IMG/VR virus record: IMGVR_UViG_3300008255_000272
Location: 1 to 35,788 of that record
Length of the DNA: 35,788 nucleotides
From: a virus
Lineage: Duplodnaviria > Caudoviricetes
Direction: 5' to 3' (one strand)
Shown here: piece after piece, positions 12,273 through 17,916 of the stretch
How positions within the stretch are numbered: the first letter of the stretch is position 1
Layout: each line of letters begins with the position of its first letter
The notes under the pieces: model-generated
The model's database searches: none
Seen by the model: only the letters and a program-made list of their open reading frames with translations
What the model was told of the DNA's origin: nothing
Program-made: the position numbers and the translations under genes

Positions 12273-12305
12273 AATTATTAAAAAAAGGTGTAACTAAATA
12301 AAAAA

Positions 12306-13009: not shown

Positions 13010-13543
13010 ATGCCTGACGAAAATGAAAAAAAAGTTGTAACAGAGGAAGTTGATGAAGCGATTGATCTTGAATCAGAAATAGAACTTGGTGACAGTCCTA
13101 CTGAAGATGAAAAAGACAAGGCAATCAAAACATTGAAAGCACAAAAGGATCATTGGAGAAAAAAAGCGACTGATCCAAAACCAGAAGTTAAACCTGAAGA
13201 GAAAAAAGAAGTTCAACAAGGTGATGCACTTTCAACAGAAGATTTATATGCTCTTATGAACAACAAAGTTGCTCAAGAGGATATTGCGGAAGTTAAAGAT
13301 TATGCAAAACTGAAGGGAATCTCAATCTCTGAAGCTCTAAAATCTCCAATTGTGAAAACTATACTCGAAACTAATGAGGAAGCTCGAACTGTGGCTCAAG
13401 CAACAAACACTGGAAAGACTGCGAAGACTCAAACAGGAATTTCAGATGAAGAATTGCTATCAAATGCAAAGAAAGGGCAAATGCCTGAATCTGATGCAGA
13501 CATGGACCGACTAATCCGACTTAGAACTGGAAAGAAAAATTAA
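13010..13543 (+). CDS. Capsid scaffolding protein
   Basis: Acidic, charged and helical; immediately upstream of the capsid gene. Confidence 0.7.
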   Translation: MPDENEKKVVTEEVDEAIDLESEIELGDSPTEDEKDKAIKTLKAQKDHWRKKATDPKPEVKPEEKKEVQQGDALSTEDLYALMNNKVAQEDIAEVKDYAKLKGISISEALKSPIVKTILETNEEARTVAQATNTGKTAKTQTGISDEELLSNAKKGQMPESDADMDRLIRLRTGKKN

Positions 13544-13580
13544 AAAATAGGTGAATTATTAATATATAATTCACACTTTA

Positions 13581-14435
13581 ATGCTTAATACAATTAGTTC
13601 ACGAACATATCGTGACAAATTTCGAAAAGCAACACTTGAACAAGCGTTGAGAAACAGATTAGTAGCAGAAGCGATTTGTGAAGTTGATCGATCAGACAAC
13701 AAACGAATCCAATCTCCATACGGATCACAACCAACAGCAACAGTTCAAGCTATTGCAGGAACTTACTCAATCGACACATTTACAACAACAGATGACACTC
13801 TAACAGTGACAGATGAAGTTATTGTGGCGGAACACATCTTCGACTTTGAAGACATTTTGACACAATTTGATTTGTTCGCTTCAAGAACAGATGAAACTGT
13901 TTATCAAGTTGCAACAAAAATCGACAGATTCGTACTAAACAACCTTTGTGAAGATGGAACTGGAACTTACACAACTCCTGCCGGAGGTTTCACAACTGCT
14001 TCAAACATCAATGTGATCATGTCAAACCTTCTTTCAAAGGTTGCAGGTTACGCTGAAGTTTACAAAGGACTTTTCTTGGTTATCGAGAATACAGACATGG
14101 TTGGTTTCGCTCAAGCTCAAGCTACAAACGGATTCAACTTTGCTGACTCTGCACTTAAGAACGGATTCATGAACTCTTACATGGGTGTTGACATCTATGT
14201 TGTTCGAACAGGAACATTCGCTTCAGAAACTCTAGGAACAACTACTTACACAAATGACGGACACAGAGTGTTCGGTGTTAAGAATGTTGCAACTTACGCT
14301 TCTCCACGAGGTGTTCGATTCGAAGAAAAAGCTGTTTCAGGAAAAACAGGAATGGAAGTTGTAACTTATGGTTACATCGGATTCAAACTATGGACTCCAA
14401 AAGCAGGATTGATCATTGACATTACACTAGCGTAA
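13581..14435 (+). CDS. Major capsid protein (HK97 fold, P22 coat-like)
   Basis: 284 aa; DDTLTVTD, VATKIDRFVL, YMGVDIYV and C-terminal YGYIGFKLW pattern; position in the module; strongly biased codons. Confidence 0.8.
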   Translation: MLNTISSRTYRDKFRKATLEQALRNRLVAEAICEVDRSDNKRIQSPYGSQPTATVQAIAGTYSIDTFTTTDDTLTVTDEVIVAEHIFDFEDILTQFDLFASRTDETVYQVATKIDRFVLNNLCEDGTGTYTTPAGGFTTASNINVIMSNLLSKVAGYAEVYKGLFLVIENTDMVGFAQAQATNGFNFADSALKNGFMNSYMGVDIYVVRTGTFASETLGTTTYTNDGHRVFGVKNVATYASPRGVRFEEKAVSGKTGMEVVTYGYIGFKLWTPKAGLIIDITLA

Positions 14436-14444
14436 TTATCCACC

Positions 14445-14535
14445 TCCTTTGTTGGGGGTGTGGAGGTTGTAGTTAAGGCAGTTTTATTCACCTATTTCTG
14501 CACGAGATTATAACTTCCACATCCTCCGCAAAGGA
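14445..14535 (+). ncRNA. Long G-U-rich RNA stem-loop downstream of the capsid gene
   Basis: 29-bp stem 14445-14473/14507-14535 with 6 G-U pairs and 1 mismatch; inner GCAG/CTGC stem. Confidence 0.75.
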
Positions 14536-14550
14536 ATAACTACTAAAAAA

Positions 14551-14796
14551 ATGGCAAGAACTAAAAAAAATGAACAAGCTCCAAAGGAGAAAGAAGAAAC
14601 TCCAGTTGAAGTTGAAGCATCTCAAGAAGCTCCGGTTGTAGAAGCAGTTGTTGAAGAAACAGTTGTTGAAGCTCCAAAGGTTTCTGGCTCATACGCAGAA
14701 TTCGCAGATTTTATTGAAAGATATAAAATCCAAAATCCTGTTAAATACGAGCAAAAGAAAGAAGTATTATTGGCTCAATTAAACGCTTTAAAATAA
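14551..14796 (+). CDS. Small acidic hypothetical protein
   Basis: Glu/Val/Ala-rich ORF in the structural operon. Confidence 0.7.
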   Translation: MARTKKNEQAPKEKEETPVEVEASQEAPVVEAVVEETVVEAPKVSGSYAEFADFIERYKIQNPVKYEQKKEVLLAQLNALK

Positions 14797-16497: not shown

Positions 16498-17916
16498 ATG
16501 GCAATAGCATTTGATGCAGTCAGTGTAGGTTTAAAAGCTCCAGCTTCTGGAACTCCTTTAACATTTGCACATACTTGTACGGGTGCTAATAGAAAACTAT
16601 TCGTTGGACTATTTAAAACAGCAGGTGACACTGTAACAGGAGTTACTTATGGAGGAGTTTCCATGACTCTGGTTGATAAAATTGCTAACGGGACTGAATA
16701 TGTTTACTTGTATGAATTGATTGCTCCGGCAACAGGATCTAATAACGTGGTGATTTCATTCACATCAAATGCAATTGTTAGAGCACACGCTATTTCTTAT
16801 ACAGGGGTAAAGCAAACAGGAAGCGTTGACGCTTCTGCTAAAAACTCAACATCAGGAACTACAATTACAACAACGCTGACAACTATTGAAAATAATTGTT
16901 GGACAGTTGAATATTGTCGAGCAGGAGGGGATATTACAGCAGGTGCAGGAACTACTTTAAGGGGGACTTCAACAACATCAAACCCTCTAGACTCTAATGG
17001 TCCAAAAACACCAGCAGGTTCAACTTCACTTATAGCAAATTCAAGTGTGAGTTATTTAATGGCAACTGTTATGGCTTCTTTTGCTCCTGCAACAGATGAT
17101 TATCCAATGGTTGCTTCACTTGGAACATTCACATTGACTGGAATCGCATCGATTCTATCTTTTGGAAGAAAAATGGTTGCAAGTCTTGGAACATTTGCTC
17201 TAACAAGCGTGAATACAATCTTATCTTTTGGAAGAAAAATGGTTGCTTCACTTGGAACATTTGCTCTAACTGGAATTGATGTCATTTTCTACTATGGGAA
17301 AATGATTCTTGCTTCTGTTGGAACATTCACATTGACTGGAATAAATGCAACATTTGGAGTGACACTTACTATGATCGCTTCAGTTGGAACATTTGTTTTA
17401 ACAGGATTTGCAACAGCACTTGGAAAAGGCTTCATAATCTTGGCGAGTCTTGGAACATTCACATTGACTGGAATTGATGCATTATTTGCAATGGGGTATG
17501 GAGTAATTGCTTCTGTTGGAACATTCACACTAACTGGAATAAATGCATTGTTTAATTTTGGAAGGACAATGATCGCTTCAACTGGAGCTTTTACATTGAC
17601 TGGAATTAACGCTTTGTTTTCAATCGGATATGCTTTTCTGGCTTCACTTGGAACTTTTACATTGACTGGAGTGAACGCAACACTGGCTTATGGAAGAGTA
17701 TTAATTGCTTCTGTTGGAGCATTCACACTAACTGGAATAAATGTGACCTTTGGAGTTACTCTTTCAATCGTTGCTTCTGTTGGATCATTTGTTGTAACAA
17801 TGCAAAATGTAATTTTTAGAGTGACGGGATGGAGAAATCCTTTTGCTAAAAATAATATTTCAGCAACAAATACAACAAAAAATAGTGAAGATTGGATTAA
17901 CCAAGACAAATCTTAA
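16498..17916 (+). CDS. Putative fibre/adhesin with N-terminal beta-sandwich and 11 ~22-aa repeats
   Basis: Repeated AS(L/V)GTF(T/A)LTG motif in the C-terminal half. Confidence 0.65.
   Translation: MAIAFDAVSVGLKAPASGTPLTFAHTCTGANRKLFVGLFKTAGDTVTGVTYGGVSMTLVDKIANGTEYVYLYELIAPATGSNNVVISFTSNAIVRAHAISYTGVKQTGSVDASAKNSTSGTTITTTLTTIENNCWTVEYCRAGGDITAGAGTTLRGTSTTSNPLDSNGPKTPAGSTSLIANSSVSYLMATVMASFAPATDDYPMVASLGTFTLTGIASILSFGRKMVASLGTFALTSVNTILSFGRKMVASLGTFALTGIDVIFYYGKMILASVGTFTLTGINATFGVTLTMIASVGTFVLTGFATALGKGFIILASLGTFTLTGIDALFAMGYGVIASVGTFTLTGINALFNFGRTMIASTGAFTLTGINALFSIGYAFLASLGTFTLTGVNATLAYGRVLIASVGAFTLTGINVTFGVTLSIVASVGSFVVTMQNVIFRVTGWRNPFAKNNISATNTTKNSEDWINQDKS
17107..17820 (+). repeat. ~66-nt coding tandem repeats (11 degenerate copies)
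   Basis: Recurring GCTTC(A/T)(C/G)TTGGAACATT(C/T)ACATTGACTGGAAT. Confidence 0.85.

Follow-up and report, generated by a model that had tools for sequence, protein, structure and literature searches.

Described 5'-3' pairings and the capsid locus

The closest described analogue of the element reported here is the rep pseudoknot of ColIb-P9 (IncI-alpha) and related plasmids, where pseudoknot-dependent translational coupling is activating (PMC4705826). According to the available parts of that source, a local structure masks the rep start, the loop of a stem-loop ~100 nt upstream pairs long-range with a sequence 5' of the start that belongs to the masking fold, and an upstream ORF stops beside this target; termination there exposes the word, and the pairing keeps the start open. 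The phage locus described below resembles this arrangement in that the loop of a stem-loop pairs long-range with a leader word belonging to a fold predicted to mask the start. It differs in that the loop lies behind a whole gene of 855 nt, and in that the gene encodes a phage capsid rather than a plasmid Rep. The plasmid gene has a Shine-Dalgarno (SD) sequence, whereas the phage family shows no SD use, and an antisense Inc RNA competes for the plasmid loop, whereas promoter-like sites in the region here stand at chance level. Because its loop is downstream and no SD is used, the element is not a member of the ColIb-P9 system.

An earlier note on this DNA had likened the element to a kind known from plant RNA viruses, and this likeness fails on host and genome. 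In the part of PMC5382211 that was available, the plant-virus 3'CITEs (BTE, TED, ISS, and YSS) resemble the phage element in that a 3' stem-loop makes a kissing contact with the 5' region of its own RNA, bracketing the ORF. They differ in that they replace the cap in eukaryotic positive-strand RNA viruses, whereas the present DNA comes from a tailed dsDNA phage with terminase, primase, and HK97-fold capsid genes. They also recruit eIF4F-type factors, whereas here the cistron is internal to a late operon and the 5' partner is an arm of a predicted hairpin.

Pairing across a whole ORF inside one bacterial mRNA is a feature that the element shares with icaR, hbs, and the aapA/hok toxin mRNAs. In the accessible text of the respective sources, 5'-3' UTR pairing in S. 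aureus icaR represses by covering the SD (PMC7821165), the aapA/hok mRNAs show repressive 5'-3' pairing together with metastable hairpins that guide co-transcriptional folding (PMC6733600), and bacterial mRNA forms long-range pairs spanning hundreds of nucleotides in living cells (PMC12697547). The 3' element of icaR and aapA/hok pairs with the SD, whereas the phage family has no SD enrichment and the start region is left free. According to a review, as far as it is excerpted, hbs and a number of further functional 3'UTRs lack conservation among close relatives (cited with PMC7821165, PMC5737220, and PMC6733600); unlike these, the leader-loop pairing described here covaries across capsids with identities as low as ~46%. 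No dsDNA-phage precedent was found in the literature searched, where most subscription papers are missing. The IMG/VR catalogue of viral candidate RNAs clusters single intergenic regions, to judge from the accessible material (PMC10690425); the loop and word motifs were absent from the seven supplementary files searched, and the hairpin alone may be catalogued there.

We analyzed a virus record of 35,788 bases (CheckV completeness 100%), referred to here as the window, whose genes include a primase, a methyltransferase, a terminase, and a capsid gene by phrog matches. The features discussed are collected in Table 1. The capsid identity proposed earlier was borne out by the phrog_267 match and by an AlphaFold model (pLDDT 84.5) whose best Foldseek matches were HK97-fold phage capsids (E 3.4e-13). 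The 177-aa upstream gene gave no match in PHROG and Pfam searches; it is likely the scaffold, mainly on the basis of its position between portal and capsid, and the nearest named Atlas cluster, 'Scaffolding protein' (0.89), is a lead only. PHROG and Pfam searches with the 81-aa gene downstream were likewise without a match.

Table 1. Features of the capsid region in the window
Feature	Position	Strand	Basis
Likely portal gene, 608 aa	10446..12272	+	Atlas neighbours named portal, 0.96-0.98
Upstream gene, 177 aa, likely scaffolding protein	13010..13543	+	ORF; stop codon 1 nt before target word
Target word AAATAGGTGAAT	13545..13556	+	Exact complement of loop; covarying columns map to 13546-13555
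Local leader hairpin (lock)	13551..13574	+	Predicted fold; ends 6 nt before ATG at 13581
Major capsid protein, HK97 fold, 284 aa	13581..14435	+	phrog_267, E 3.4e-9
P1, short alternative hairpin right behind capsid stop	14439..14464	+	Predicted -14.0 kcal/mol
Long stem showing loop	14445..14535, arms 14445-14473 and 14507-14535	+	Pairing plus fold prediction
Apical loop word ATTCACCTATTT	14486..14497	+	Exact complement of target word; covarying columns map to 14487-14496
Next gene, 81 aa	14551..14796	+	ORF; start 15 nt past stem

The capsid and portal proteins had no match among 50,697 GenBank phage records, in which cultured relatives were sought. Two GTDB matches were contigs of 6 kb, one in a Caldisericia MAG and the other in a Saccharibacteria MAG, and both may be misbinned phage contigs; among 401 sampled genomes of the phylum of the Saccharibacteria MAG, the one match was that same genome. 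One member of a distant cluster (representative 45% identical) sits on a 1.92-Mb contig. SD 4-mers stood upstream of 5.2% of 611 ORFs (49 loci) compared with 4.4% after shuffling, and the scarcity of SD sites remarked on earlier thus extends to the family as an absence of SD enrichment.

Elsewhere in the window, a 472-aa tail-type protein (16498-17916) matches phrog_2106 in its first part and consists of ~27-residue repeats in its second half; its first ATG was the most closed predicted start (11.7 kcal) among 13 late genes tested. Further exact inverted matches less than 1 kb apart, of 15 and 14 nt, lie at 16099-16113/16833-16847 and 28279-28292/29266-29279.

Covariation and conservation of the leader-loop pairing

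In the window, the 12-mer upstream of the capsid ATG is the exact reverse complement of the loop 12-mer, as had been noticed from the letters; each occurs once, and the match is not extendable on either side. The target word consists of a free 6-nt toehold (13545-13550) followed by 6 nt (13551-13556) within the leader hairpin, and the hairpin and the long-range helix are mutually exclusive. The loop 12-mer lies inside a 16-nt loop, which a short upper stem (14478-14481/14498-14501) closes in the centroid structure. Below it, the long stem contains 22 Watson-Crick and 6 G-U pairs and one U-C mismatch; the earlier count of six G-U pairs therefore stands, and the stem of 29 bp becomes 28 pairs over 29 positions. 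For the segment 14436-14550, the fold energy was -49.3 kcal/mol on the + strand (z -8.08; none of 200 shuffles equalled it) compared with -27.8 kcal/mol on the - strand (z -1.38, not significant), in agreement with the proposal that the stem folds on the mRNA strand. The alternative leader hairpin was also recovered where it had been placed, with a predicted energy of -9.1 kcal/mol (z -2.48, 4 of 200 shuffles as good).

The match in the window is unremarkable by itself, because the window holds 252 inverted 12-mer pairs, 21 of them within 1.5 kb with overlaps counted; the word-loop pairing is taken as real because it is conserved and covaries in relatives. The Rfam 15 covariance models gave no match in the window at the gathering score, and a scan of 13400-14700 returned just two weak matches (E 2.1 and 5.3), both outside the element. 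Stop-codon readthrough was considered and set aside, as in the window the frame past the capsid stop closes after 25 codons.

We gathered 222 related loci and added the window, 223 in all; short flanks, truncated matches, or a missing start codon excluded 14, and the remaining 209, reduced at 95% protein identity, left 124 representatives. Of these, 120 have a stem of 18 bp or more (median 27 bp; 10th-90th percentile 23-35 bp), which starts at a median of 10 nt past the capsid stop. G-U pairs made up 432 of 2,988 pairs in the long stem, which was more stable on the + strand in 105 of 116 loci, and the consensus held no conserved feature besides the loop word and the stem base. When the loop motif was located without structure, it lay no more than 6 nt from the stem apex in 93 of 101 loci. 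The duplex of each leader with its own apex averaged -18.0 kcal/mol, compared with -14.0±0.27 in 10,000 permutations. With the stem kept and the pairing covarying across the representatives, the complementarity is conserved in relatives.

The element was also found in more distant loci (L224, L227-L231, L234, and L244), down to ~46% capsid identity. It was absent from L235 and from the folded loci L238, L240, and L243, three of the six loci of a capsid clade of ~38% identity. These three carry a short terminator-like hairpin and a U tract after the capsid stop, at the boundary of the element's range. Distant-clade scans with P0006 and P0007 returned no close loci.

Separate alignments of the leader motif and of the loop motif were made for 118 loci, of which 97 lay above the score cut; the 21 left out for low motif scores mostly carry rarer variants or insertions, and several are visibly complementary. 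Six core columns were Watson-Crick in 562 of 582 cells, compared with 479±4.8 after permutation (maximum 499 in 2,000 permutations, 97 loci). In a mutual-information map made without motif seeds (MAFFT alignments, 118 rows, 7,638 cells), ranks 1, 2, 3, 5, 8, 10, and 11 fell on one antidiagonal, that is, 7 of the top 11 cells, which maps to 13546-13555 versus 14487-14496. This structure-blind map recovered the register of the long-range pairing given in the earlier note. The pair variants include AGGTGA/TCACCT (the window), CGGTGG/CCACCG, CTGGTGG/CCACCAG, CGACGG/CCGTCG, CAGTGG/CCACTG, CTGATGG/CCATCAG, and GCTGG/CCAGC. On a FastTree capsid tree, same and opposite changes, counted as averages over independent pairs, numbered 4.1 versus 0.0 of 10 pairs in column 4 (median p 0.125), 4.7 versus 0.0 of 10 in column 5 (median p 0.06), and 5.5 versus 0.0 of 14 in column 11 (median p 0.03), among the columns listed.

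The covariation between leader and loop that had been put forward as a check on the capsid loci was thus found by permutation, by the mutual-information map, and by tree pairs. The permutation and Wilcoxon values overstate significance because the rows are related; chance is excluded by the permutation result together with the structure-blind map. As read from the alignments, this covarying complementarity links the 3' loop and the leader word in one antiparallel register. Within the core of the long-range helix, G-U cells outnumbered A-C cells 12 to 3, and 12 of the 20 non-Watson-Crick cells were G-U; in a wider set the counts were 31 and 40, and the duplex energy of the helix did not favor the + strand (53 versus 67). 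The strand evidence inside the helix is weak, and RNA on the + strand is supported mainly by the stem.

Predicted folding around the capsid gene

Masking of the start, seen in ColIb-P9, is predicted here as well. The local leader fold was predicted to reach position -12 or nearer in 71 of 92 loci, and the capsid start was more closed than other late starts, taken as the first ATG of each ORF (median opening cost 7.7 versus 4.9 kcal; 359 ORFs, 35 loci). A long-range helix of -7 kcal/mol or better was found in 108 of 115 loci (median 9 bp), a few of which are probably spurious (e.g. L045); four of the seven loci without it carry an insertion that shifts a partner out of range. In 71 of 92 loci the helix occupies at least 3 nt of the local fold in the leader; in 17 of 92 the two have no overlap.

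A comparison of the folding energies of the two states, as the earlier note had recommended, showed that opening the start is predicted to be cheaper when the word is captured. The median cost of opening -15..+12 in the family was 7.7 kcal/mol while the word was free and 4.7 once it was captured, a control block giving 7.3 (108 loci), and in the window the cost fell from 7.5 to 2.3 kcal/mol when the word was removed from local pairing. Word capture lowered the cost by more than 1 kcal in 76 of the 108 loci, as the control block also did in 34, and raised it by more than 0.5 kcal in 10; the start was already open (<4 kcal) in 12. Net pairing energies are modest: the median is -4.5 kcal/mol, 99 of 108 loci have a negative value, and the window stands at ~-2.8; these figures omit the cost of closing a loop of ~900 nt. 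Of the two roles first offered for the loop, that of an anti-repressor is the best fit to the overlap and to the fall in opening cost, both of which are folding predictions.

The usual 30S footprint extends from about -20 to +15. In 103 of 108 loci, 19 nt or more separate the long-range helix from the start downstream of it; the helix thus lies clear of this footprint, which argues against repression. On the other side, the distance from the upstream stop to the word is at most 10 nt in 79 of 104 loci and greater in 25; among 33 long leaders, it was at most 6 nt in 18 and 17-59 nt in 15. Compact gene spacing could explain this proximity, which by analogy would also fit help from terminating ribosomes, though it is not universal.

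P1, the short hairpin right behind the capsid stop, is predicted with an energy of no more than -8 kcal/mol in 114 of 119 loci (median z -3.0 versus mononucleotide shuffles), and its 3' arm re-pairs within the long stem in 97 of 104. In simulated transcripts ending just past the loop (88 loci), mispairing of the loop word with a G-rich arm rose from 1.5% with P1 to 45% with P1 blocked; P1 is therefore likely a metastable folding guide, predicted to be displaced by the long stem as transcription proceeds. In guiding folding it may resemble the metastable hairpins of toxin mRNAs (PMC6733600, in the text available). An intrinsic terminator was rejected as the role of P1, since the following 8 nt held a mean of 1.9 T and five T in just 3 of 104 loci; no terminator-like site was called at the element. 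The 5' arm of P1 (14438-14450 in the window) resembles what we take to be the canonical 16S rRNA 3' tail, a likeness that is probably incidental because the exact sequence is not kept in relatives.

Endonuclease-type genes have been inserted on both sides of the capsid gene in some relatives. Inserts of HNH or NUMOD3 type (L056:851-1450, L121:9311-9973, L132:9342-9965, L083:10661-11140, L162:2376-3002, and L215:1275-1460) had Pfam matches in four of the five scanned, L162 having none and L215 being outside the scan; on visual inspection, several of them seem to carry sigma70-like promoter boxes. An endonuclease-like ORF separates the word from the start in L056 and L215, leaving it ~735 and ~293 nt away, respectively; the word still matches the loop, and the word region is predicted to pair with capsid-start bases (p 0.99-1.0). 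In L056 the insert interrupts the leader hairpin, and pairing of the two arms over ~700 nt is still predicted; of three endonuclease insertions, two leave the predicted lock in place. The hairpin of L083 and of L162 stands behind the inserted gene, 600-700 nt past the capsid stop, and its loop still matches the word. L045 has lost both word and loop, and its start is open (1.4 kcal). L121 has kept word and loop although the start of its capsid gene, at a distance of ~760 nt, is open; L132 and L188 show no clear pair, yet closed starts (9.6 and 7.6 kcal). By these predictions, the three loci would count against a pure lock.

Extra copies of the word occur as well. Tandem copies, two to four per leader, were present in 15 of 97 loci and in 0 of 968 coding windows (leaders of L043, L046, L047, L060, L062, L227-L229, L244, and others). 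A weaker second word, with a match of at least 7 nt to the locus's own loop, lies at the portal 3' junction in 17 of 50 loci, compared with expectations of 5.7 from other loops and 1.2 from portal coding windows. These sites covary with the loop (8 of 33 variant-loop loci versus 2.0 expected from other loops) and lie ~1,200-1,400 nt before the capsid start, for example in L016, L019, L032, L098, and L117; in some loci the site directly adjoins the next start codon, and in some it begins a hairpin that covers this codon. The portal junction of the window has just a 5-nt match (12286-12290). Neither the tandem copies nor the portal-junction site is required by a simple lock. In L014, downstream of the capsid hairpin, a leader-like word and a small hairpin stand just before the start of the next gene.

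Proposed mechanism, alternatives, and significance

On these data, the word appears to have two alternative partners, namely the loop and the nucleotides just before the start codon. We consider it on balance probable that the 3' loop acts as a key in cis that captures the leader word, opens the predicted lock over the start, and switches on capsid translation, a direction of effect that is taken wholly from thermodynamic prediction. In the predicted sequence of events, the new leader would fold into a lock reaching ~5 nt before the start. Past the stop codon, P1 would form first and prevent the G-rich arm from pairing with the C-rich loop word, up to the point where the long stem displaces P1 and displays the loop. 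The loop would then dock on the free 5' half of the word and invade the lock, so that an A/U-rich start region would lie open to a ribosome that initiates with no SD pairing. Ribosomes terminating at the scaffold stop, usually a few nt before the word, may help to expose it, in the manner of the ColIb-P9 coupling. The purpose may be high capsid output only from messages with the whole gene and with upstream translation; such gating would avoid truncated or unscaffolded capsid protein.

Other explanations account for parts of the same evidence. In one that seems to us unlikely, the capsid cistron is cut from the late transcript, and the helix with its flanking hairpins shields the ends, raising the mRNA level and not the translation rate. 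It would suit a bracketed cassette in which the word stays at the upstream stop and the hairpin at the far end despite insertions, as well as L121, which keeps the pair without a lock; P1 could also cap the 3' end were the long stem cut, and there is a precedent in the 14-bp 5'/3' UTR pairing that modulates RNase Y cleavage in B. subtilis hbs (available text of PMC5737220). The second partner of the word, next to the start codon, is left unexplained by it. Somewhat less probable again is an enhancer in which the rigid stem, at the edge of the terminating ribosome, holds the leader or binds the 30S subunit and so recycles or delivers ribosomes, with lock opening secondary. The short distance from stop to stem, the fairly narrow range of stem lengths, and a family that uses no SD pairing are consistent with such a closed loop; tandem targets and a second docking site fit docking, and plant 3'CITEs act via kissing of this kind (PMC5382211, in part). 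The hairpins of L083 and L162, however, match the word from behind another gene, and a consensus with nothing conserved besides loop word and stem base also speaks against it. This explanation is compatible with unlocking of the start and does not exclude it.

We regard as improbable a small RNA, in which a double-strand nuclease (e.g. RNase III) would free the top of the hairpin to act in trans on the capsid leader and the secondary sites while P1 seals the upstream message. Stems of 23-35 bp are long enough for RNase III, P1 is conserved, and the secondary sites covary with the loop; yet the hairpin is always in cis just downstream, the folding-guide role suffices for P1, and promoter-like sites in the region are at chance (6 found versus 8.0 expected). 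Repression, in which the word would be a remote SD-like site that the hairpin draws near, and the loop an anti-SD that silences the full-length message, as in icaR or type I toxin mRNAs, has in our view a very small probability. The commonest word contains GGTGG, which we take to resemble part of an SD, but the variants with GACGG, GATGG, and GCTGG still pair with the loop while losing that likeness, SD sites are not enriched in the family, and the helix ends well upstream of the start. The second site at the portal junction does abut the next start codon in L016, L019, and L032, and repressive 5'-3' pairings are known (PMC7821165, PMC6733600, and PMC12697547, each available in part). Just as improbable are inverted sites acting at the DNA level (promoter, protein-binding, or recombination sites) that co-evolve with a phage protein, or a chance resemblance. 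Tandem and secondary copies are typical of protein sites, and the G-U bias in the long-range helix is weak; against this, the 3' copy crowns a stem that is rich in G-U pairs and predominantly more stable on the + strand, the non-Watson-Crick core cells are mostly G-U, and the permutation result and structure-blind map exclude chance.

Beyond unlocking by the loop in cis, we can tentatively envisage a wider role, about which we are doubtful, as a prokaryotic 3' enhancer: the capsid message would be looped, the hairpin would both unlock the start and return terminating ribosomes to it, and the weaker word copies would tune neighboring head genes, so that one RNA arm might set virion protein ratios without SD pairing.

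Judged by its covariation, this is a real, strongly covarying long-range RNA element, for which we predict a function in opening the capsid start. The whole-gene bacterial 5'-3' pairings found in the literature searched, as far as those sources were available, repress translation or modulate cleavage, and the activating pseudoknot found there, that of ColIb-P9, acts from upstream over ~100 nt. Because the element is small, modular, and tolerant of inserted genes, it could be used in reporter tests and for gating expression on full-length mRNA. If the proposed mechanism is true, activation from behind the gene in more than 100 phage lineages would amount to closed-loop translational control in a bacterial cell. 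It would also give these phages a route to the most abundant virion protein without SD sites, and an RNA-only check on the completeness of the message before it is translated.
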